Origin: Candidatus Nomurabacteria bacterium
GTDB taxonomy: Bacteria > Patescibacteriota > Patescibacteriia > HK-STAS-PATE-3
Direction: 5' to 3'
DNA length: 64,000 nt
Assembly (NCBI GenBank): GCA_023898465.1
Contig: CP060223.1
Coordinates: 736,001 to 800,000, forward strand
The first letter of the stretch is position 1, and the number at the start of each line of letters is the position of its first letter. The notes below the pieces were generated by a model that was given only the letters and a program-made list of their open reading frames with translations, did no database searches and was not told the DNA's origin. Positions 5,098 through 59,210 of the stretch are shown piece by piece. The translations under genes were made by a program, and so were the position numbers.

Positions 5098-5937
5098 TCA
5101 GCACCGCCATAGCTCCTCACCTCGCACCTCAATGCACACATCCCCTTCTTCAATAGTTGAGAGTATCTGGGCACCGCGCTGCTCCACTCGCTCAAGCGTT
5201 TCAGGGCTAGGATGCCCAAATTGATTATCTAGGCCCGCGGAAACTATAACGATGCTGGGCTCTACCGCATCCAACCAAGCATCACTGGAGGAGGTTTTTG
5301 AGCCATGATGACCCAACTTCAATACATCAGCATGGAGTGGTAAACCAGACTCCAGCATTTCCTTTTCCTCATCAAAGTCGGCGTCGCCAGTCAATATGAA
5401 TGATTTCGCGCCAACATCTAAGCGAGTAACTACTGAATAGCGATTTTGATCGTCTGGCTCCTTTCCTCGCCAATCACCTTTAGGTGCGAGGACGGTCAGC
5501 TCCGCACCAGGCAAACTATAGCGTTGACCAGGCTGCGCATAGAGTATCGTTACCCCCTGATCAACTAAGAGCTGGAGAAACTCCTGATAGGCGGGCAAGT
5601 AATGTTCCACTCCGGTGAGTAAAACGCTTTGCACATGATAACGATGTAGCACCTCAACAAAGCCTGTCACATGATCAGCGTCAGGATGTGTCAGCACAAG
5701 CAGTTCAATAGTGCGGTCAAAATATGGTAAACGCTCACCTAGCCGCTCAACAACGGTCATGTCAGCTCCTGCATCAGTCAACACGTCAAAATGTTGTAGC
5801 GCTTGAATAAGTATCGCGTCTCCCTGTCCAATATCTAGAGTAGTCACTCGCACGAAATGCACCTGACGATATGACCAGACAACATATCCTGCCACGAAAA
5901 TACACAGCACAAATAAAATGAGTCGTATTCGCTTCAT
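5098..5937 (-). CDS. ComEC/Rec2-related metallo-beta-lactamase domain protein (C-terminal part of a split ComEC)
   Basis: LDIGQGDAILI…HPDADHVTG…LKLGHHGS MBL-fold motifs typical of the ComEC C-terminal domain. The start overlaps the upstream ORF by 4 nt (ATGA). Confidence 0.8.
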   Translation of the reverse strand: MKRIRLILFVLCIFVAGYVVWSYRQVHFVRVTTLDIGQGDAILIQALQHFDVLTDAGADMTVVERLGERLPYFDRTIELLVLTHPDADHVTGFVEVLHRYHVQSVLLTGVEHYLPAYQEFLQLLVDQGVTILYAQPGQRYSLPGAELTVLAPKGDWRGKEPDDQNRYSVVTRLDVGAKSFILTGDADFDEEKEMLESGLPLHADVLKLGHHGSKTSSSDAWLDAVEPSIVIVSAGLDNQFGHPSPETLERVEQRGAQILSTIEEGDVCIEVRGEELWRC

Positions 5938-10885: not shown

Positions 10886-11094
10886 AGCGTATACCCAGGG
10901 TACTGTTCATACCGTGCAGTGTCAAGTCAAAAAGCATCAGTATGGCAGGAAAAAATACCTGCTACGTATAGTACAGCAAGCCTCTCCCTTTTCTTTCATA
11001 AATGAAAAACCCAATACTTTTAAATATATAAGCATTGGGCTCATTCTTCTCAAACTGTGCTCATAAAATAACAAGCACATTGAGACACGACGCT

Positions 11095-11409
11095 CTAGCG
11101 AACTTGCCGGTTTTTTCTATTTCTCCGGCGACGCGAACGTCGAGAGCCCAGTGAAGTCAGTACCACCTCTTGGCAAGGGAATTCCTTAACAAATGGTGGC
11201 CAGTTCACTGGGAAGAACAAGGCTTGGTACCCATGACGGTCAATCAGCTCTTGCCGAAACCTCTCCTCGCAGACATACCACTTCCGTCTCAGCAAAATCC
11301 GACGATTTTCGTGATGTAGCTGTCCGAGTCTCTCTGCCTGCTTCCTGTCGTCAGCCACGATCGGCTGACTCATTCCGCACACTGGACATTGAGCCAGAAA
11401 GCGTTGCAT
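11095..11409 (-). CDS. Hypothetical small protein with CPVCG…C zinc-ribbon-like motif and Arg-rich C-terminus
   Basis: 104-aa ORF. Confidence 0.35.
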   Translation of the reverse strand: MQRFLAQCPVCGMSQPIVADDRKQAERLGQLHHENRRILLRRKWYVCEERFRQELIDRHGYQALFFPVNWPPFVKEFPCQEVVLTSLGSRRSRRRRNRKNRQVR

Positions 11410-13774: not shown

Positions 13775-14314
13775 TTAGTAGTCAATTCCCTTTTCGGCCA
13801 ACCTGCCTTCATCATAAGGATGTTTCACCTTACGCATGTCAGTCACCAGATCAGCCAACTTGTTAATACGAGGATAGTTGGTATGTCCGGTCAGCACTAA
13901 ATGCAGCGAGGGACGCTTGGCCTTCATAAGCTTAATAAGCGCCGTTTGAGAAAAGAGCTCTGACTCAATAGCTGAAATTGCTTCATCAAGAATTACCACA
14001 TCATAAGCATTTGAACGAACTGCTCGCATGGCCGCTTGAAGCGCCTGCTGCGCTGCTCGCTTATGGACGATGAAAGGTTTCGTATCGTTCAAAATTTTCA
14101 CAAAGCCTTTGCCAAGCACCCAAACATCAACGCCAAGCTTTTTGAGCATGGCGCGTTCACCCGAGGGCCAGCGCTCTTCTTTTACAAACTGGAGGAAGAA
14201 AACCCGCTTACCCCAACCACGAGCTCGGACAGCCACGCCAACCGCTGCAGTAGTTTTTCCTTTTCCCTTCCCAAGGTACAGGAGAGTGAGGCCTGAGGGT
14301 GTTTTTTTATCCAT
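13775..14314 (-). CDS. cobO: Cob(I)yrinic acid a,c-diamide / corrinoid adenosyltransferase (CobA/CobO/BtuR family)
   Basis: P-loop LYLGKGKGKTTAA. ILDE. C-terminal HPYDEGRLAEKGIDY, matching the BtuR C-terminus. Start taken at the internal Met (MDKKT…) of ORF 13775..14347. Confidence 0.75.
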   Translation of the reverse strand: MDKKTPSGLTLLYLGKGKGKTTAAVGVAVRARGWGKRVFFLQFVKEERWPSGERAMLKKLGVDVWVLGKGFVKILNDTKPFIVHKRAAQQALQAAMRAVRSNAYDVVILDEAISAIESELFSQTALIKLMKAKRPSLHLVLTGHTNYPRINKLADLVTDMRKVKHPYDEGRLAEKGIDY

Positions 14315-14372
14315 ACCAGAGCATCCCGCCCCATTGCTTATTAGCAATGGGGCGGGATTTTCAAGCTAGTGA

Positions 14373-17306
14373 TTAGGAGCAGCCGCTCGTATTACCGCAT
14401 TCCAGACACTTGTAGCAGGATGCGTTGCGAACCATGATAGCTCCGCAGAAATCGCAAGGCGGTGCGTCGGTTTGATTCTTGATCGTGCTCAGTTCAAGTT
14501 GAACTCCAGAAGTGGCGCTTTCTTTTTCCTCTACTTTTTCTTGCACCTTCTCTGCTACTGGAGCAGCGCTGGCGACTGGCTCGGCTTTCTGGACTGGAGC
14601 AGTTGAGGTCGCCTGCGCGGTCAGATCAGCATTGTGGAATTCAGCTGCCTCTTTTGAGGTCATGAACTTCAGGGCTAACCAGCGGAAAATGTAATCCATG
14701 ATCGACTTCACCATCGGGATCTGCTTGTTGCGTGTGAAGCCGGCTGGTTCAAAGCGAGAGTGCGTAAATTTGCTAATGAGCACCTTCAGCGGCACACCAT
14801 ACTGCAAGTTCAGGGAAATTGAAGTGGCAAAGGCGTCCATTACTCCAGAGAGTGTACTACCCTCTTTACTCATGGTGATGAAGAGCTCGCCTGGTTGTCC
14901 GTCAGGATAGAGACCAACCGTGATGTAACCCTCGTGCCCGGCAATATCAAACTTATGCGTGATAGATTGACGCTCGTCTGGTAGACGATGGCGGTAGGGC
15001 TTCGGGTCAGGTGAAACAACGGCTGCCGCGGTCTTCTCTTGCTTCTTACCATCCTCAGTCAAGGAAGTATTGAGCGGCTGCGTACGCTTTGATCCATCAC
15101 GGTAGATAGCTAAGGCCTTCAAGCCAAGCTTCCAACCCTGAATGTAGGCATCCATGATTTCTTCTACTGTGGAATCAGCTGGCATGTTGACGGTCTTAGA
15201 GATAGCACCAGAGATGAAAGGTTGTGCTGCGCCCATCATTTTTAAGTGACCCATGTGGTGAATGGAGCGTGTACCGTTTGCAGCTGGGAAAGCACAGTCA
15301 AACACGGCTAGATCTTCTTTCTTTACATGAGGAGCACCCTCGATTGTGTCATTGCTATCAATGAAGTCAGTGATAGCGGTAACCTGCTCTTTGGTATACC
15401 CCAGCCTATCCAAGGCCATTGGTACTGTGCGGTTGATAATCTTCATATATCCGCCACCAACCAGCTTCTTGTACTTCACCAAAGCAATATCAGGTTCAAT
15501 GCCGGTAGTATCACAGTCCATCATAAAAGCGATGGTTCCGGTCGGAGCTAATACGGAAACCTGGGCATTGCGGACACCATACTGGGTACCACGGGTAACT
15601 GCTTCGTCCCACACATTGCGAGAAGCTTCCCACATGTCGCTCGGGATCAAGGACTGCGTAATACCATCAACTGCTTCACGATGCTGACGTAATACACGGA
15701 GAGTGGAGTCTTTATTCGTTTCATAATCTGGGAAAGGCCCCATCTCTTTAGCAATCTCGGCTGATTGCGCATAGGCCTGACCAGTTAAGAGGGCAGTAAT
15801 AACTGCTGCGTAGGCTCGGCCTTCATCGCTGTCATATGGTAAGCCAAGTGACATCAAGAGGGCACCCAAGTTTGCGTAACCAATACCTAAAGTACGGTAG
15901 AGGTGACTGCGCGCAGCGATCCGCTCAGTTGGGTAGCTTGAGTTATCGACAATGATTTCCATGGCAGTGATCAACACCTTGATGGCATGGAGATACTTGG
16001 TGTAGTCAAAGCGACCATCCTGCGTCCGAAACTTCATCAGGTTGATAGATGCTAGGTTGCAGGCAGTGTCGTTCAAGAACATGTACTCGGAACATGGGTT
16101 GGAAGCATGGATACGGTCAGTGTTCAGACAGGTGTGCCAATTGTTGATGGTGGTGTCATATTGCAATCCCGGGTCACCACACTGATGGGTTGCTTCAGAA
16201 ATCATGCGCAGCACATCGCGAGCTTTGTACGTATCAACCACTGCATCATCTTTTACTGCCCGGGTCTGCCAATAGCCATCGCTCTCGACTGCTTTCATGA
16301 ATTCATCAGTAACGCGGACGCTGTGGTTAGCGTTTTGGAAATAGACTGAGGTATAGGCCTCGCCGTCAATTGCGCCATCATAACCTGCATCAATTAATGA
16401 CCAGGCTTTTCGCTCTTCTTTTGCCTTACTCCAGATAAATTCAACTACGTCTGGGTGTTCAACGTTCAAGATAACCATCTTAGCGGCTCGTCGCGTTTTT
16501 CCACCCGACTTGATCACGCCAGCAAAAGAGTCAAAGCCCTTCATGAAAGAAACCGGCCCTGAGGCTGTACCACCACCAGACAAGCGCTCTCGTGAAGAGC
16601 GAATTGGTGAAAGGTTGGAGCCAGCGCCAGATCCGAACTTGAAAATCATACCCTCGCTCTTTGCCAAGCTAAGGATAGAATCCATTGAATCTTCTACCGA
16701 GAGAATAAAACAGGCCGAGCACTGTGGATGAGTGTAATCATCCTGAGCTAAACCCACTTCCTGCTTCTCTTTTTGCCAATACCAGCGGCCAGCGCCGGAT
16801 CCCCGGTCATAGCGATGCACGCCACAGTTAAACCATACCGGGCTATTGAAGGTCATATACTGATGCACAATCAACCAGGTCAATTCATCGTAAAAAGTCT
16901 GTGCATCATCAGCTGTAGCAAAATAACCATCCGCCTGACCCCAGTCAGTGATGGTACGAGTGACACGATCAATTAACTGCTTGATGCTGGTCTCTCGCTG
17001 ACCCTTATCATTATCACCGTAAAAATATTTTGAGACAACGATGTTTGTAGCATTCTGTGTCCAAAAATTTGGAACCTCGACATCCTTTTGCTCAAAAACC
17101 ACTTTACCTTTTGAATCAGTAATCGCCGCGGTGCGTCGCTCCCATTGAATCTCATCAAAGGGTTGTACATTTCCACGTGAAAAAAAGCGCTGCCATCGCA
17201 AACCGAGGCCTCGCTTACCCTTCTGCTTAGTATCCATTAATTTTTCCAACAGAGCTTCTTTAGTGCTCTCGTGGACATGAGTATTCGACTGGGCAGAAGG
17301 CGGCAT
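14373..17306 (-). CDS. nrdJ: Adenosylcobalamin-dependent ribonucleotide reductase (class II, NrdJ) with C-terminal Cys4 zinc ribbon
   Basis: 977 aa. Active-site region NPCSEYMFLNDTACNLASINL. C-terminal CDFCG…CYKCLECG. Confidence 0.9.
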   Translation of the reverse strand: MPPSAQSNTHVHESTKEALLEKLMDTKQKGKRGLGLRWQRFFSRGNVQPFDEIQWERRTAAITDSKGKVVFEQKDVEVPNFWTQNATNIVVSKYFYGDNDKGQRETSIKQLIDRVTRTITDWGQADGYFATADDAQTFYDELTWLIVHQYMTFNSPVWFNCGVHRYDRGSGAGRWYWQKEKQEVGLAQDDYTHPQCSACFILSVEDSMDSILSLAKSEGMIFKFGSGAGSNLSPIRSSRERLSGGGTASGPVSFMKGFDSFAGVIKSGGKTRRAAKMVILNVEHPDVVEFIWSKAKEERKAWSLIDAGYDGAIDGEAYTSVYFQNANHSVRVTDEFMKAVESDGYWQTRAVKDDAVVDTYKARDVLRMISEATHQCGDPGLQYDTTINNWHTCLNTDRIHASNPCSEYMFLNDTACNLASINLMKFRTQDGRFDYTKYLHAIKVLITAMEIIVDNSSYPTERIAARSHLYRTLGIGYANLGALLMSLGLPYDSDEGRAYAAVITALLTGQAYAQSAEIAKEMGPFPDYETNKDSTLRVLRQHREAVDGITQSLIPSDMWEASRNVWDEAVTRGTQYGVRNAQVSVLAPTGTIAFMMDCDTTGIEPDIALVKYKKLVGGGYMKIINRTVPMALDRLGYTKEQVTAITDFIDSNDTIEGAPHVKKEDLAVFDCAFPAANGTRSIHHMGHLKMMGAAQPFISGAISKTVNMPADSTVEEIMDAYIQGWKLGLKALAIYRDGSKRTQPLNTSLTEDGKKQEKTAAAVVSPDPKPYRHRLPDERQSITHKFDIAGHEGYITVGLYPDGQPGELFITMSKEGSTLSGVMDAFATSISLNLQYGVPLKVLISKFTHSRFEPAGFTRNKQIPMVKSIMDYIFRWLALKFMTSKEAAEFHNADLTAQATSTAPVQKAEPVASAAPVAEKVQEKVEEKESATSGVQLELSTIKNQTDAPPCDFCGAIMVRNASCYKCLECGNTSGCS

Positions 17307-17346
17307 GGGAATATCCTTTCTGTAATGGTTAATGAGGAAAGTAGCG

Positions 17347-17850
17347 TTATGAGCGGCGACGTTTTTTTACAGTTCGCCGGACTGTTTTTGTACGGAGGAG
17401 AGCTTGCAGTTCGCGTTGGAAAGTCTCAGCGTCTTTGAAAGACCGGTAGACGGAAGCAAATCGGATGTAGGCAACCGGATCAATCTTCTTAAGGTGACGC
17501 ATGATGACTTCGCCAATATCCTTTGACTTCACCTCTTGAGCACTCTTGCGACCACTTAGCTTCTGAATGTCGCGCTCGATTCGACTGAGCAGCTGAGTAA
17601 ACTCTTCAGTAGTCGTAGGTCGCTTCTCAAGTGCCTTGCGTAACCCTTGCTCCATTTTTTCACGTAGGTAGGGTTCCCGGCGTCCATCTCTTTTTAAGAT
17701 GGTGACATTGAGGAGCTCTACTTCTTCATAGGTGGTGAAGCGGAAGGTGCAGCGAGTACATTCGCGACGACGTCGGATGGCAAAGCCATCGGTGACGAGG
17801 CGTGAATCAGTAACCTTGCTATCCGCGTGATGGCAAACCGGACATTTCAT
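17347..17850 (-). CDS. nrdR: Transcriptional repressor NrdR (zinc ribbon + ATP-cone)
   Basis: MKCPVCHHADSKVTDSR…CTRC zinc ribbon followed by an ATP-cone. Confidence 0.9.
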   Translation of the reverse strand: MKCPVCHHADSKVTDSRLVTDGFAIRRRRECTRCTFRFTTYEEVELLNVTILKRDGRREPYLREKMEQGLRKALEKRPTTTEEFTQLLSRIERDIQKLSGRKSAQEVKSKDIGEVIMRHLKKIDPVAYIRFASVYRSFKDAETFQRELQALLRTKTVRRTVKKRRRS

Positions 17851-18072
17851 ACCGTTAGCAACTCTTCAGGCTCCATGAGGAGAAGCCTATCCAAGTTATT
17901 CAGATAATGCATCGACAGGGATTAGCCTGTCGACTTGATACACCATCCTGAAGAAAGGACGGTGCGTAGAGCAATAAGTTGTAAGGTTTTTTGGAGGCTT
18001 TCTTGAGACGAAAACAGGCCACTGCCATATCGCGTACTTGTGCTGGCTGGTGCCCGTGTTGCCCCCGTTGCT

Positions 18073-18125
18073 ACAATATCTAGTAGTGCTAGGTGTAATT
18101 TTACTACAAGATATAGTCTTGTCAA
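18073..18125 (-). promoter_or_regulatory. Sigma-70-like promoter (minus strand TTGACA-16-TAAAAT) with two NrdR-box-like palindromes
   Basis: Minus strand reads TTGACAagactatatcttgtagTAAAAT. Box B ACAAGATATAGTCTTGT (18106..18122) lies within the spacer. Box A ACAATATCTAGTAGTG (18073..18088) lies just downstream of the predicted TSS. Both resemble the NrdR-box consensus acaCwAtATaTwGtgt. The promoter sits about 230 nt upstream of nrdR. Confidence 0.55.
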
Positions 18126-18223
18126 CCCACAAAACACTAGGAATTTGTGAGTTAAGGGGATTGGAACGGCGCAAAGCACCTCGCCACGCTGAGCGTGACG
18201 TCCCCCTACTCTATCAAGATGTC

Positions 18224-19435
18224 CTAGAGCATTTTCTTTCGGATGAAGGCTGGGATTTCCAGCTCCTCTTCCTCTTTTGTTTTCTCTGTACCGCTATCAC
18301 TGACTGGTCGCGATACCTCTGGAGTAATACGCTTCGGTTTTGGGGCTGGCTCCTCGCGCTTGAAGTCCATTTCCGGCTCATCATCCATAAACGAGGTGCT
18401 GTGCTTTGGCTCGTCTTGGGCAATTGGCGAGATAGTAGGCATCTTTTTCATCACTGGGCGCTTCCCATCCTTACCAAAGCCAGTCGCGATAACCGTAATC
18501 TTAATTTCATCACCAAGTGATTGATCAATCACAGAGCCAAAGATAACCTTAGCGTTTGCATCAGCAGAACTGGTAATAACTTTAGCCGCCTCATTGACTT
18601 CGTACATGGATAACTTCTCGCCACCAGAGATGGTGAAGAGGATGCCATGTGCGCCATCGATAGAAAGCTCGAGCAAAGGAGAATCAATGGCCGCCTTAGC
18701 TGCTTCAGTAGCACGATTTTCGCCAGTGGAGCGACCAATACCCATCAGTGCGGTACCAGCATTTTGCATAATCGCCTTCACGTCAGCAAAGTCGACGTTG
18801 ATAAGACCTGGAACGGTAATCAATTCAGCGATACCCTGCACGCCCTGACGCAACACATCATCAACGATTGCGAAAGATTCCAGTAAGGAAGTTTTCTTAT
18901 CAATAATTTGTAAGAGTCGATCATTAGGAATAGTAATGATGGTGTCTACTCGATCAGCTAATTCGCTGTGTCCGCTCTCGGCAATTGAATTACGCTGCGC
19001 ACCTTCAAAACTAAATGGCTTCGTAACAACAGCTACTGTTAAAGCGCCAACGTCCTTGGCGATTTCAGCAATCACTGGGGCAGCACCAGTACCAGTGCCT
19101 CCGCCCAAACCACAGGTGATGAAAACCATATCAGAGCCTTTTAAGAGGTCGTGAATTTCATCCTGACTCTCTTCAGCGGCTTTGCGGCCCACATCGGGAT
19201 CCATACCAGCGCCTAAACCACGAGTGGTGGCTTTACCAATATGCACCTTAGTTGAAGCTGAATTATGGTGAAGGGCTTGCGCGTCAGTATTTACGGCAAT
19301 AAACTCGATGCCACGAATATGCGCATCGATCATGCGGTTGACTGCTGATCCACCGGATCCCCCGACTCCGATGACCTTTATTTTCGCGAATGTTTCAACT
19401 GGCGGCTTTACTTCTGTTGGTGATTGTTTAGGCAT
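18224..19435 (-). CDS. ftsZ: Cell division protein FtsZ
   Basis: Tubulin signature [11 protein letters not shown]-terminal conserved peptide EIPAFIRKK. Confidence 0.95.
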
Positions 19436-32157: not shown

Positions 32158-32282
32158 TTTCCTAGTTCCAACTGGTTGTAATGATTTATCGTCCTTGGAA
32201 TTTTTTGTAGACCGATATTCTGTTTTTGGCATAAGGCCGTTTTTGAAAAAATAGAAAGCGAATGAAGAAAAATTTCCTGGTG

Positions 32283-32356
32283 GACGATGGAGGAGTCGAA
32301 CCTCCGACCTCACGAATGTGAATCGTGCGCTCTAACCAACTGAGCTAATCGTCCAT
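32283..32356 (-). tRNA. tRNA-Val (anticodon CAC)
   Basis: Manual cloverleaf: GGACGAT/ATCGTCC acceptor, GCTC/GAGC D-stem, anticodon arm CACGA-TTCACAT-TCGTG, TTCGACT T-loop. Confidence 0.8.
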
Positions 32357-40351: not shown

Positions 40352-40423
40352 TGCCGTGGGAGGGATTCGAACCCCCAACCTTCAGATTACGAGTCAGATG
40401 CTCTACCACTGAGCTACCACGGC
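40352..40423 (-). tRNA. tRNA-Thr (anticodon CGU)
   Basis: Manual cloverleaf GCCGTGG…CCACGGC-A. Anticodon arm TCTGA-CTCGTAA-TCTGA has one U·U pair. Confidence 0.7.
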
Positions 40424-40579
40424 AGCTGTGTTGCGGGTCCTCAGGGCCTGCATGCTCTTCCCAGCGTACTGGACACTTTGGGCTGCAACACAACTTTTTA
40501 AGGACAGGCCGGGAAAATCCCGGGGGTGTTTATCTATGCACCTCTCGGTGAACTGATGGTATTTCACCTGTCCAAGATG

Positions 40580-40650
40580 AGCGGGAGACGGGATTTGAAC
40601 CCGCGACCTTCCGCCAGAGGCGGCTGCTCTGCCAACTGAGCTACGCCCGC
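40580..40650 (-). tRNA. tRNA-like gene with non-canonical anticodon arm (isotype undetermined; possible pseudogene)
   Basis: Acceptor GCGGGCG/CTCCCGC has one mismatch. D and T arms are canonical. Between them CCGCC-TCT-GGCGG forms a perfect 5-bp stem with only a 3-nt loop, so no 7-nt anticodon loop can be drawn. Confidence 0.45.
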
Positions 40651-40796
40651 AAAAAAGAACGGACTAAGAATGTAGCGTATCCCCAAAAAGCTGTCAACCC
40701 TGTACCAGGCTTGGTGCGAGGTCAACCCTATCGTTCGCGAACTACGGAATCAAGAAAAAGGGAGATGCCATCAATGATGAACATCTCCCGAAGATT

Positions 40797-40868
40797 TGGT
40801 ACCTCCTGGAATCGAACCAGGGTAACCCGATTTTCAGTCGAGCACTCTACCAACTGAGTTAAGGTACC
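40797..40868 (-). tRNA. tRNA-Phe (anticodon GAA)
   Basis: GGTACCT acceptor. Anticodon arm CTCGA-CTGAAAA-TCGGG. T-loop TTCGATT. Confidence 0.8.
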
Positions 40869-40956
40869 GCTAGAGCGTGGCGGAAAGGCGAAGGACTTTC
40901 ACCAACTCACTGATCAAGACCAGCGTGTCCTCGGGGACGCCTTTCCAGAACAGATG

Positions 40957-41028
40957 AGGCGGGTCAAGGATTTGAACCTCGGAATCGCGGATTTGAAGAC
41001 CGCTGCCTTACCACTTGGCTAACCCGCC
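40957..41028 (-). tRNA. tRNA with UCA anticodon, tRNA-Cys-like body (candidate UGA-reading tRNA)
   Basis: GGCGGGT/ACCCGCC acceptor with discriminator U73. Anticodon arm GCGGT-CTTCAAA-TCCGC gives U33, anticodon 34-36 = UCA, A37. Short variable loop, 72 nt. The acceptor, discriminator and anticodon stem closely resemble bacterial tRNA-Cys (GCA), with G34 changed to U. Confidence 0.55.
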
Positions 41029-41050
41029 TTTCAACCTATAAGTTAGAGAG

Positions 41051-41124
41051 GCGCCCTGGAAGGAATTGAACCTCCGACATCTGGGTCCATAGCCCAGCGC
41101 TCTTCCGACTGAGCTACAGGGCAC
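41051..41124 (-). tRNA. tRNA-His-like (extra 5' G-1 opposite C73); anticodon reads AUG by manual fold, atypical
   Basis: G-1 + TGCCCTG acceptor with C73. D-arm GCTC-AGTCGGAA-GAGC. Anticodon arm CTGGG-CTATGGA-CCCAG. Body resembles tRNA-His, but position 34 is A rather than G. Confidence 0.45.
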
Positions 41125-41133
41125 AACAAACGG

Positions 41134-41206
41134 TAGCGCAAGCAGGATTCAAACCTACGTTTCCACACAGAGAATGTGGCGACCTAAACCACTAGTCGAT
41201 TGCGCC
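41134..41206 (-). tRNA. tRNA, anticodon CUC by manual fold (Glu-like), atypical U37
   Basis: GGCGCAA/TTGCGCT acceptor (G1·U72). Anticodon arm CCACA-TTCTCTG-TGTGG. T-loop TTTGAAT. Confidence 0.45.
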
Positions 41207-41311
41207 GGCAAATAGATTGCGACAGACCCTCTTCCGAGAGAGTGACGGCTCATCCTGCTATGAAAGAGGCCATCACAAAATGGTAAGCAATGTACTACAC
41301 CTGATCTAATG

Positions 41312-41386
41312 CGGCGCTGACAGGATTTGAACCTGCGAAACACTCGGCTGACCGCCGAGCTGCCTTAACCACTAGACTACAGCGCC
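41312..41386 (-). tRNA. tRNA-Asp-like (anticodon GUC), with 6-bp anticodon stem and G33
   Basis: GGCGCTG/CAGCGCC acceptor. Anticodon arm GCTCGG-CGGTCAG-CCGAGT. 75 nt. Confidence 0.5.
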
Positions 41387-57196: not shown

Positions 57197-57283
57197 GCCG
57201 CGGTGGCGGAACTGGCAGACGCACAGGACTCAAAATCCTGCGAGCGCAAGCTCATGAGAGTTCGATTCTCTCCCGCGGCACCA
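57197..57283 (+). tRNA. tRNA-Leu (anticodon CAA), type II with long variable arm, encoded CCA
   Basis: GCCGCGG acceptor. Anticodon arm CAGGA-CTCAAAA-TCCTG. Variable arm CGAGCGCAAGCTCAT. 3' CCA. Confidence 0.8.
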
Positions 57284-57313
57284 AAAAACCGCCTCGTAGG
57301 CGGCTTTCTGCTT
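57284..57313. terminator. Bidirectional rho-independent terminator (A6-CCGCCTCGTAGGCGG-CTTTCTGCTT)
   Basis: Seen directly. Lies between the convergent tRNA-Leu (+) and the 57327..57572 (-) gene. Confidence 0.7.
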
Positions 57314-57326
57314 GTCTGGCTTATAG

Positions 57327-57572
57327 TTAACCGGATGACTCGGCAGCATCCAGGGCCTTAAGAGCATCCACGCCCTCTTCTAACACGCTTAGGTATTGAT
57401 TATTTAAACGCGTCATCACCTGTAAGTAAAGACGTGCATAGGTGACATGTTCCTTGCCTCGTTCAGCTGGATCTTTCGTATCAGTAAAATAATCATCCAG
57501 CATCTTTTTAGCCTCAGGCCACTTTTCAGCTTTCATGAGCTCTTCTAATTTGTCGAGGTTTACTGTGCTCAT
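57327..57572 (-). CDS. Hypothetical small protein
   Basis: 81-aa ORF. Start overlaps the upstream gene stop (ATGA). Confidence 0.4.
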   Translation of the reverse strand: MSTVNLDKLEELMKAEKWPEAKKMLDDYFTDTKDPAERGKEHVTYARLYLQVMTRLNNQYLSVLEEGVDALKALDAAESSG

Positions 57573-58711
57573 TTGGTGTTCTCTATTTGAGTAATATACA
57601 TGGAAATAATCGCCCGCTTACCTGGACGGACATTCTTAGCAATGTCGCGAAGGGATTCGATCAAGAATGTACGGGCTTCTCCTGGACGACGTAAACCTAC
57701 CTTGGGATCTTTAAAAATCTTATCCATTTTCTTGGCAAAGGCGTCATAGCGATTTACTTCGCGGATTGAGCGTTCGAGGGTATCGGCAACTTTTGTCTCT
57801 ATGCGAAGCTGCAACTCTTCTTCAAAGTCATCTTCACTCAATTCAACTGTTTTAGAACCATCACCAGACTCATATTCCACGTGATAGGTAAAGTCGGATA
57901 AATAATCAGTGCCTTGCTGCTCACTGAGCGTACGAAGTTGCGCTAAATACTCTAACGCCTTCTGCGTGCCAGTCTCCGACTCATCTGAGCCGAGTTGTTG
58001 TAATTTTTCTTGCGCAAGTTCACGCGCTCGTTCCATAATCGCCCGAGCAGGCTCTATAGCGTCCCAGATATCCTGTCGTATCTTTTGCACTTCTCGCAGC
58101 TCACCAAGAGGACCAAGTATCCTCTCTACTTTACGCAACTCTTTATCATAATCTTTTTCAACATTATGACGGGTAGCTAATTCTTCTTGAGCTATCTTCT
58201 GGTCTTCGCTAGGCTTAATAAAACGTCCAATAATAAACCAACGCTGTTTGCCTTGCTTTGCCGCTTCTTTGAGCAGCTTTTCTTTCTCTCGTAATTTTCT
58301 CTCACCGCCATGCTCGGCCAGCAGCGTTTCTACCTCTAGCTCCCTTTCCTCAATCATCTCCTTACTCTCTCTATACTGGCGAGCTTCATTCTGAATAGTA
58401 GCAAGTGCTTCTGGATTCTCGCGAACTTCTCGTTGGATATATTCATCAATTGCCGCAAACTCGGCGTCATCCATCTGAATATCAAGCTGCTTAGCTATCT
58501 CTTCCTTAAAAAGCTTTTTAATTTCAGGCCCTACGCTCTGAGCTAATTCAAATGCCTCATGTCGCTCCGCTAGCTGCTCAGGCCCTAAAGCATCGAAATC
58601 GAGGTCATCATCATAGCTATCTAAAAATTCAACGAACTTTGGATCGTTGAGATATTGCTCTGGACTGCCCCCCGCCTCGCGTGACATGTCGGAAAAATGT
58701 CCTTCACGCAT
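57569..58711 (-). CDS. Hypothetical acidic coiled-coil-rich protein
   Basis: 380 aa, E/K/L-rich. No recognised catalytic motif. Confidence 0.5.
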   Translation of the reverse strand: MREGHFSDMSREAGGSPEQYLNDPKFVEFLDSYDDDLDFDALGPEQLAERHEAFELAQSVGPEIKKLFKEEIAKQLDIQMDDAEFAAIDEYIQREVRENPEALATIQNEARQYRESKEMIEERELEVETLLAEHGGERKLREKEKLLKEAAKQGKQRWFIIGRFIKPSEDQKIAQEELATRHNVEKDYDKELRKVERILGPLGELREVQKIRQDIWDAIEPARAIMERARELAQEKLQQLGSDESETGTQKALEYLAQLRTLSEQQGTDYLSDFTYHVEYESGDGSKTVELSEDDFEEELQLRIETKVADTLERSIREVNRYDAFAKKMDKIFKDPKVGLRRPGEARTFLIESLRDIAKNVRPGKRAIISMYITQIENTK

Positions 58712-58808
58712 ATCAAAAAGCTAATTAACTGTTAGTGTTTTTGTATTTACATTGGTAGTATAGCAAAAAAATTGCTTTTTAGCAAGATTGTCGACTATTT
58801 ATTTATCC

Positions 58809-58841
58809 TTGACTTGACTTTATGCTGAGAATCCGTAGTAT
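58809..58841 (+). promoter_or_regulatory. Sigma-70-like promoter TTGACT-16-TAGTAT driving the tRNA-Met gene
   Basis: TTGACTTGACT followed by TAGTAT. The predicted TSS coincides with the mature tRNA 5' end. Confidence 0.55.
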
Positions 58842-58846
58842 GCACC

Positions 58847-58921
58847 TGCGGGGTGGAGCAATGGTAGCTCGGCGGGCTCATAATCCGCAGGTTGAGGGTT
58901 CAAGTCCCTCCCCCGCAACCA
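58847..58921 (+). tRNA. tRNA-Met (CAU), initiator-like (A11:U24, GGG in anticodon stem)
   Basis: TGCGGGG/CCCCGCA acceptor. Anticodon arm GCGGG-CTCATAA-TCCGC. 3' CCA encoded. Confidence 0.7.
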
Positions 58922-59133
58922 AGCGTCATCAAGTCCTTCATCCTACGTATTCCGACAAGTCGGACTACTTCGGATTACGGCCGTGTGCCGCTTTTCAGAC
59001 TCGCACTTAACCAAAAGGCCCAAGTGCTCGTCTGTGGAGATGCTTGAAAAGCTTCGAGAGACGGTATACACTGCTCATGCTTCATATTTATCGAACTGAA
59101 GAGCTGCGAAAAGTAAAAATGTAATTACGACGT

Positions 59134-59210
59134 GCCGGGGTAGCTCAGTTGGTTAGAGCGGAGGACTCATAAGCCTCAGGTCGGCGGTTCGATCCCGCCC
59201 CCCGGTACCA
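59134..59210 (+). tRNA. tRNA with CAU anticodon, elongator-type (Met or Ile2/lysidine)
   Basis: GCCGGGG acceptor. GCTC/GAGC D-stem (Y11:R24). Anticodon arm GAGGA-CTCATAA-GCCTC. CCA encoded. Confidence 0.7.

Follow-up and report, generated by a model that had tools for sequence, protein, structure and literature searches.

A stretch of 64,000 nt from a Candidatus Nomurabacteria genome (contig CP060223.1, forward-strand positions 736,001 to 800,000; hereafter the window) carries a minus-strand gene cluster that begins with nrdR, for the repressor NrdR, and nrdJ, for a class II, adenosylcobalamin-dependent ribonucleotide reductase (RNR). We consider the region to be an nrdR-nrdJ operon under negative autoregulation, of the kind known from Streptomyces nrdRJ but residing in a Patescibacteria genome, and put the probability of this reading at about 85%. 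A sequence-only reading of the same DNA had described the layout as typical of NrdR repression, a description that is supported both by a scan with a position weight matrix (PWM) and by a footprint found in seven related genomes. The elements at the center of the argument are the following.

18125-18120, minus strand: -35 hexamer TTGACA, from the promoter scan
18119-18104, minus strand: NrdR box 1, AGACTATATCTTGTAG, found with the published core pattern
18103-18098, minus strand: -10 hexamer TAAAAT, from the promoter scan
18086-18071, minus strand: NrdR box 2, CTACTAGATATTGTAG, found with the published core pattern
18106-18122, plus strand: 17-bp palindrome ACAAGATATAGTCTTGT, as given by the sequence-only reading and present in the window
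18073-18088, plus strand: second palindrome ACAATATCTAGTAGTG, likewise given by that reading and present
17850-17347, minus strand: nrdR, repressor of 167 aa with a PF22811 Zn ribbon and a PF03477 ATP-cone
17306-14373, minus strand: nrdJ, class II RNR of 977 aa with PF02867, PF08471 and TSCPD domains

The promoter TTGACA-16-TAAAAT lies on the minus strand at 18125-18098, as had been claimed, and fits the sigma-70 consensus at 11 of 12 positions. Is that consensus in use in this host? Sites matching at 11 or more of the 12 positions number five in the window (62042, 29725, 18125, 11491 and 5006), where about 1.0±1.0 would be expected by chance, and all five are on the minus strand; from this one-stranded excess it appears that the host genome does use the sigma-70 consensus.

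Box 1 is the entire 16-nt spacer between the -35 and -10 hexamers, and box 2 spans about +6 to +21 from the inferred transcription start. The linker between them, made up of the -10 hexamer and 11 nt, is 17 bp, which puts 33 bp, or some three turns of the helix, between the box centers; the sequence-only reading had placed its second site at this same distance. Both boxes fit the core C.[AT].[AT][AT].[AT].G (C4, A/T6, A/T8, A/T9, A/T11 and G13, with 8 bp between the C and the G), which the Sjöberg laboratory has assigned to positions 4-13 of the 16-bp NrdR box, the six conserved positions being C4, A6, A8, T9, T11 and G13 (PMC13584703). Permitted linkers are 14-17 or 24-27 bp (PMC13584703, PMC12051234), and the linker of 17 bp falls inside the 14-17 bp range. 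The two palindromes had been taken to be the NrdR boxes themselves. The strings are there, but they are out of register with the true boxes, by 3 nt at box 1 and by 2 nt at box 2. The 17-bp palindrome, which was said to sit in the spacer, takes in the final ACA of the -35 hexamer and is not an NrdR box in its own right.

How often would such a pair turn up by chance? The core regular expression, combined with the linker rule, is permissive, finding 10 pairs in 64 kb, and for this reason a symmetrised PWM was built from nine experimentally bound Escherichia coli and Streptomyces coelicolor boxes (Table 1 of PMC13584703), restricted to boxes with the usual 8-bp C-G spacing and containing no sequences from the window's own lineage. 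Among all 16-mers of the window, box 1 ranks first (14.8 bits) and box 2 second (14.4 bits). The sequence-only reading had named just such a scan as a test that could refute it, and came through it intact. The summed score of the pair, 29.3 bits, may be compared with the maximum pair sums of 200 Markov-1 random sequences of 64 kb, which average 14.2±2.3 and reach 22.2 at the highest; 29.3 bits was attained by none of the 200, and the observed pair stands about 6.5 standard deviations above the random maximum. The next-best pair in the window, at 5784-5841 (19.1 bits, 26-bp linker), lies inside a coding sequence (5098-5937), scores within the random maxima and was set aside as chance. That coding sequence comes after the gene for a ComEC-like membrane protein.

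With NrdR as the query, 160 loci were retrieved from collections of genomes and metagenomes, and the closest NrdR relatives are metagenome-assembled genomes of Patescibacteria; loci in related genomes are designated here by L numbers. The design cTTGACA-box1-TAnnnT-(10-11 nt)-box2 is shared by L001, L002, L003, L007, L084, L085 and L086, and among the relatives with nrdR-nrdJ no other block of the ftsZ-nrdR intergenic region has been conserved, the flanks having diverged. The sequence cTTGAC is invariant in a five-genome alignment, the -35 element is also present in L084-L086, and the TAnnnT pattern of the -10 element is kept in the relatives. L007 has a linker of 16 bp, against 17 bp in the window, in L001-L003 and in L084-L086. 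Four of these promoters read as follows.

L001: cTTGACA GTCCCATATATTGTGG TAAGCT ... ACACTAGATATGGGGG
L002: cTTGACA GTACTATATCTGGTAG TATACT ... GTACTAGATATGGTAG
L003: cTTGACA ACACTATATGTAGTGG TATAAT ... ACACTATATCTAGTAG
L085: cTTGACA GTCCCATATCTTGTAG TAAAAT ... ATACTAGATATAGTAG

A further comparison concerns the genes that follow nrdR. An RNR gene comes next in seven of the 30 closest genome loci, nrdJ in L001, L002, L003 and L007, and nrdD-nrdG in L004, L006 and L008. Six of these seven loci have an upstream box pair of 22-38 bits, the exception being L006, whose contig has only 346 nt of DNA upstream; in the remaining 23 loci, where no RNR gene follows nrdR, there is no pair above 15 bits. 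The box pairs thus track nrdR-RNR operons, as NrdR operators should. Promoters of more distant nrdR genes (L110-L162) also have box 1 directly after TTGAC, and the layout is a common one rather than a peculiarity of the window's lineage.

One might object that the boxes are chance near-palindromes of AT-rich DNA, or the operator of another regulator, and that NrdR acts elsewhere. The loose regular expression, after all, finds its 10 pairs without help, and the 17-bp palindrome is built in part from the -35 hexamer. Yet a matrix derived from unrelated phyla ranks the two sites above all other 16-mers of the window, with the pair far out beyond the random maximum; the box positions and the C4/G13 core have been kept in seven relatives whose flanks have diverged; and strong pairs are seen in 6/7 nrdR-RNR loci and 0/23 others. 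We regard the objection as very improbable.

The sister lineages in which nrdR-nrdD-nrdG, with a class III RNR, replaces nrdR-nrdJ (L008 6467-9751, L004 6605-8686, L006 884-2881) offer some variations. In L004 and L008, nrdR is preceded by a NrdR box pair like that of the window; the pair of L004 is placed downstream of the -10 hexamer instead of within the spacer, and a leader of 448 nt then follows. The NrdD of L008 carries an intein. A gene that tends to stay with nrdR is ftsZ: of the 29 closest genome loci (L001-L029), 23 have it upstream of nrdR in the same orientation, and in 18 it is the immediate neighbour, with a gap under 600 nt; this ftsZ-nrdR neighbourhood is conserved in Patescibacteria with or without an RNR gene after nrdR.

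The identities of nrdR and nrdJ, and the membership of the downstream cobO product in its family, are secure. NrdR scores 180.3 bits against TIGR00244, above the curated family threshold of 124.65, and matches the solved E. coli and S. coelicolor NrdR chains in the PDB over its full length with an E value of about 1e-38. It retains the DNA-contact residues D15, R17, R26-R29 (the RRRR motif) and R37, of which D15 and R17 confer sequence specificity while R26-R29 and R37 contact the DNA backbone (PMC9110341). The E. coli and S. coelicolor repressors each bind the other's boxes (PMC13584703), and the window's NrdR can safely be expected to recognize boxes so near the consensus. NrdJ, with the RNR barrel (PF02867) and the class II N-terminal domain (PF08471), scores 1459.7 bits against NF005122 (cut-off 859) and 580 bits against TIGR02504 (cut-off 400). 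A Shine-Dalgarno sequence, GAAAGGA, lies 8 nt upstream of nrdJ and is kept in L001 and L002; the nrdR start codon has no visible Shine-Dalgarno sequence.

How would the circuit operate? For NrdR binding and its nucleotide dependence, for the transcription start and the extent of the transcript, and for the functions of the CobO-like and DUF6580 proteins encoded further downstream, we infer the following. The strong sigma-70-type promoter TTGACA-16-TAAAAT would drive nrdR, nrdJ and probably the downstream genes. By analogy with the S. coelicolor and E. coli complexes, a NrdR tetramer with ATP and dATP would occupy both boxes through paired Zn-ribbons and, as in the cryo-EM structures, kink the DNA at the central AT step of each box (PMC9110341). 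NrdR bound in this way would block the -35/-10 spacer and the start site, so that RNA polymerase is excluded; when dATP is low, ATP-only oligomers would be off the DNA and the operon would be transcribed. The status of the deoxynucleotide (dNTP) pool would then set both the RNR, the only one seen in the window, and the repressor. Since nrdR is the first gene, the circuit would be negatively autoregulated, as in S. coelicolor nrdRJ. The downstream genes would provide the RNR with its cofactor, the adenosyltransferase making adenosylcobalamin and the DUF6580 protein probably importing a corrinoid.

Between the operator and nrdR lies a long leader, and upstream of both is ftsZ, the ftsZ-nrdR intergenic region measuring 373 nt.

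19435-18224, minus strand: ftsZ, directly upstream of nrdR
18070-17851, minus strand: nrdR 5' leader of 220 nt, between box 2 and the start codon

Does this leader hold a second cis-regulatory element, for example an attenuator or a riboswitch, with NrdR being only one of two controls? The leader does fold better than its shuffles, with a minimum free energy of -80.2 kcal/mol (z -3.6), L001-L004 and L084-L086 likewise have leaders, of 100-450 nt, and the window has in common with L001 and L084 a short hairpin, near 18020-18009, with TTTTCG after it. Against this, a search of the leader with Rfam at E<=10 matched no family, so that a cobalamin or other known riboswitch was rejected there; the one match of that search, DUF805b at 16 bits, falls at 18203-18239, in the region of the ftsZ stop and tail. 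The leader is moreover conserved neither in sequence nor in length, running from 15 nt in L007 to 448 nt, and RNAalifold applied to five leaders gave 5 pairs with zero covariation, that is, without compensatory change, on which ground a conserved leader RNA structure was also rejected. A second element in the leader is therefore unlikely in our view.

How far does the operon reach? The genes and signals downstream of nrdJ are these.

14358-14323, minus strand: 16-bp GC-rich hairpin with core CCCGCCCCATTGC / GCAATGGGGCGGG, after the stop codon of nrdJ and before the ATG of cobO
14314-13775, minus strand: cobO/btuR-like gene for an ATP:corrinoid adenosyltransferase, 179 aa from the ATG (PF02572, E 4e-53)
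13763-13332, minus strand: Nudix hydrolase gene, 143 aa (PF00293)
13321-12761, minus strand: gene for a DUF6580 membrane protein of 186 aa, a candidate corrinoid transporter with a predicted ECF S-component / BtuM-like fold
12747-11860, minus strand: polysaccharide deacetylase gene (PF01522), the last tightly spaced member of the cluster
11530-11501, minus strand: first terminator-like hairpin after the cluster, an 11-bp stem followed by a T-rich tail, TGTTTTGG

The sequence-only reading proposed an operon of nrdR, nrdJ and cobO, co-oriented and with gaps of 20-40 nt. The profile matches and the shared minus strand bear out the co-orientation, and the cluster is real, but the co-directional run does not end at cobO and continues through the Nudix, DUF6580 and deacetylase genes. 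As for the gaps, that between nrdR and nrdJ is indeed 40 nt, and that between nrdJ and cobO is 25 nt if cobO is read from the TTG at 14347, the start used by the open reading frame (ORF) finder. The ATG at 14314 is the more likely start, because relatives start there and because the TTG sits within the hairpin, and from it the gap is 58 nt. The later gaps are short, at 11 nt (cobO-Nudix), 10 nt (Nudix-DUF6580) and 13 nt (DUF6580-deacetylase). A promoter-like site matching at 11 of 12 positions, at 11491-11463, comes after the terminator-like hairpin.

Co-orientation alone is weak evidence for an operon, since from 8.3 to 28.8 kb the whole set of ORFs of at least 120 aa, taken without those that have a larger overlapping ORF, is on the minus strand. 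Judged from sequence comparison, conserved synteny is the better evidence: the order nrdR-nrdJ-cobO-...-DUF6580-deacetylase is present in L001, L002 and L007, and cobO-nudix-DUF6580-deacetylase in L164. The Nudix gene occupies the same position in L001, L164 and L165, and is not found there in L002 or L007; its product has matches in NCBIfam to pyrimidine (d)NTP and MutT-type diphosphatases that are weak and below cut-off. The deacetylase gene comes after the DUF6580 gene in L001, L002, L007, L164 and L165.

The hairpin between nrdJ and cobO complicates matters. The 75-nt intergenic segment folds at -37.2 kcal/mol (RNAfold), and the hairpin, which has no U tract, covers both the TTG at 14347 and a G-rich stretch before the ATG at 14314, where the ribosome-binding site of cobO presumably lies. 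In L002, too, nrdJ is followed by a hairpin of comparable strength. Such a structure might act by stabilising the message upstream of it, by attenuating transcription or by hiding the ribosome-binding site of cobO, and with so strong a hairpin between the two genes their equal co-expression is not assured.

One may go further and suppose that only nrdR and nrdJ are controlled by NrdR, the genes from cobO onward being separate units which lie alongside through the co-directional packing of a small genome and are expressed as the nrdJ-cobO hairpin and internal promoters dictate. The GC-rich hairpin stands immediately after nrdJ, as this would require; promoter-like sites lie at 13363-13334 and 12819-12792; the uniformity of the minus-strand ORFs deprives co-orientation of most of its meaning; and in relatives a cobalamin riboswitch between cobO and DUF4430-DUF6580 implies that the transporter is separately controlled there. 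The hairpin lacks a U tract, however, and no terminator-like hairpin with a T tail comes before that at 11530-11501. The gaps of 58, 11, 10 and 13 nt are short, there are no promoter sites matching at 10 or more of 12 positions between 18098 and 12819, and cobO comes after nrdJ in L001, L002 and L007, directly so in L001 and L002. On balance we doubt that the later genes are separate units, while giving the idea serious consideration.

The CobO-like protein scores 180.5 bits against PF02572, for which the cut-off is 25.7. It resembles Salmonella enterica CobA (1g5r, 4hut) over a full-length alignment (E 1e-24), sharing the P-loop GKGKGKTT (GxGKGKTT), F91 and the C-terminal GIDY. F91 and W93 of the Salmonella enzyme are residues that we take to line the corrinoid pocket; the W93 position is occupied by R in L001, K in L002 and G in L007. 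In contrast to Salmonella CobA, the window gene is linked to nrdJ and not to cob/cbi biosynthesis genes. On sequence grounds we class the protein as a divergent member of the adenosyltransferase family, a putative enzyme whose gene is linked to nrdJ.

What, then, weighs against the NrdR-controlled operon as we have drawn it? At the operator, the linker of 17 bp stands at the upper limit of the usual lengths (15-16 bp), the weakly conserved position 10 is C in box 1 and A in box 2, and the aca/tgt flanks of the older consensus appear in neither box. On the matter of the linker, spacers of 17 bp were bound well in vitro by each of the four NrdRs tested (PMC12051234). The operator is separated from nrdR by the leader of 220 nt. 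Beyond nrdJ, the 16-bp hairpin before cobO could end or process the transcript, and there are internal promoter-like sites at 13363-13334 and 12819-12792. Finally, the CobO-like protein falls below the NCBIfam equivalog cut-offs, with 150.6 bits against 185 for NF004637 and 141.2 against 167.75 for TIGR00708, and carries Lys in place of the W93 of Salmonella CobA.

What is the DUF6580 protein? Sequence comparison offers no help: phmmer against the PDB returned only noise, NCBIfam gave zero matches, and in the literature searched we found no mention of DUF6580. Only the comparison of predicted folds is informative, and the model is of the ECF S-component type, closest to the cobalamin transporter BtuM. 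BtuM of Thiobacillus denitrificans is a solitary cobalamin transporter of the ECF S-component type with an invariant cobalt-ligating cysteine, Cys80 (PMC6072759; PDB 8ovv). In contrast to BtuM, with which it has no sequence similarity detectable by phmmer against the PDB, the window's DUF6580 protein contains no cysteine in its 186 aa, nor is cysteine among the invariant columns of 49 DUF6580 homologues. Without the cobalt-ligating cysteine, the protein should not be classed as a BtuM. A further contrast with BtuM is that in most genomes DUF6580 is paired with a DUF4430 protein, which is transcobalamin-like.

The neighbours of DUF6580 are of particular interest here. DUF4430, the type of C-terminal domain found in transcobalamins (PMC4350170), is encoded in a gene adjacent to DUF6580 in 10 of 11 loci outside the window's sublineage. 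In L081, L167 and L170, DUF6580 is adjoined by large proteins with faint or weak matches to SQHop_cyclase_C (a terpene-cyclase family), and one of these loci also has a faint DUF4430 match. Cobalamin riboswitches precede DUF4430-DUF6580 in L002 (10178-10315, 36.2 bits) and L007 (10554-10754, 32.2 bits), and an AdoCbl riboswitch does so in L081 (2918-3036, 51.5 bits); L001 has a candidate just under threshold (11005-11120, 30.9 bits), and at the gathering score there is no cobalamin riboswitch beside DUF6580 in L167-L171. The link between riboswitch and DUF6580 thus rests on 3-4 of 11 loci. With the DUF4430 neighbours and the riboswitches arguing for a role in corrinoid transport, DUF6580 is probably a corrinoid importer with a BtuM-like predicted fold. 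The sequence-only reading had tied cobO to an organism that salvages cobalamin, and the DUF6580 gene next door, together with the cobalamin riboswitches of relatives at the same spot, is consistent with such salvage.

The window itself has neither riboswitch nor DUF4430, and the same is true of its closest relative here, L164. At the gathering score, Rfam found only tRNAs in the whole 64-kb window, with no Cobalamin or AdoCbl aptamer. (Seven of the tRNA genes cluster on the minus strand at 40352-41386, within about 1 kb; three are on the plus strand at 57197-59207, and one more is at 32281-32354.) A tblastn search of the window for a DUF4430 gene, with the proteins of three relatives as queries, gave nothing below E 0.77, and no riboswitch remnant was found in the 112-nt Nudix-DUF6580 gap of L164. 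About 1.2 kb of L001 is missing in the window.

We offer tentatively, and at less than even odds, the following picture. The cysteine-less DUF6580 protein and DUF4430 would form an uncharacterised corrinoid uptake system, a pair widespread in Patescibacteria, joined in this clade to nrdJ-cobO as a module for B12-dependent dNTP supply. The window's sublineage would have lost the riboswitch and DUF4430, and the transporter gene, coming after cobO-nudix, may be read from the NrdR promoter. If so, control of the transporter would have shifted from sensing of the cofactor to sensing of the product, dATP.

What do these findings mean? The NrdR finding itself adds little that is new; it would not surprise a specialist, the regulatory design being a known one. 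The mechanism worked out for Streptomyces and E. coli NrdR seems essentially unchanged in Patescibacteria, to judge by the core, the paired boxes, the promoter occlusion and the key residues, and the operator, clean and conserved and with its linker of 17 bp, makes a test case for the spacing rules of NrdR. Only the prediction that DUF6580 and DUF4430 act in B12 uptake has some novelty. They are probably involved in the corrinoid uptake of small-genome bacteria whose DNA synthesis depends entirely on an RNR that needs B12 and, if this is true, the external supply of B12 would be a growth-limiting dependency of such organisms.

Among known systems, the closest is the nrdRJ operon of S. coelicolor. 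There too nrdR is directly upstream of a class II nrdJ and co-oriented with it, and there too two 16-bp boxes, about three turns apart, cover the promoter and start region upstream of nrdR, an arrangement that implies autoregulation. The two repressors are alike in their Zn-ribbon and ATP-cone and in D15, R17 and the RRRR motif. The window differs in having a linker of 17 bp rather than 15, a box 1 that fills the -35/-10 spacer exactly, and a 220-nt leader; its cluster runs on into cobO, a Nudix gene and the gene for a BtuM-like membrane protein, and its host belongs to the Patescibacteria, with ftsZ immediately upstream. The NrdR sites of E. coli nrdAB, nrdHIEF and nrdDG (PMC12176259, PMC13584703) share with the window the box core C4, A6, A8, T9, T11 and G13 and the need for paired boxes, and the window's boxes are the top-scoring ones with a PWM that includes E. 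coli sites. E. coli is otherwise unlike the window, in that its nrdR is outside the RNR operons, its linkers are 15-16 bp, and the RNRs under control are of classes I and III, not II.

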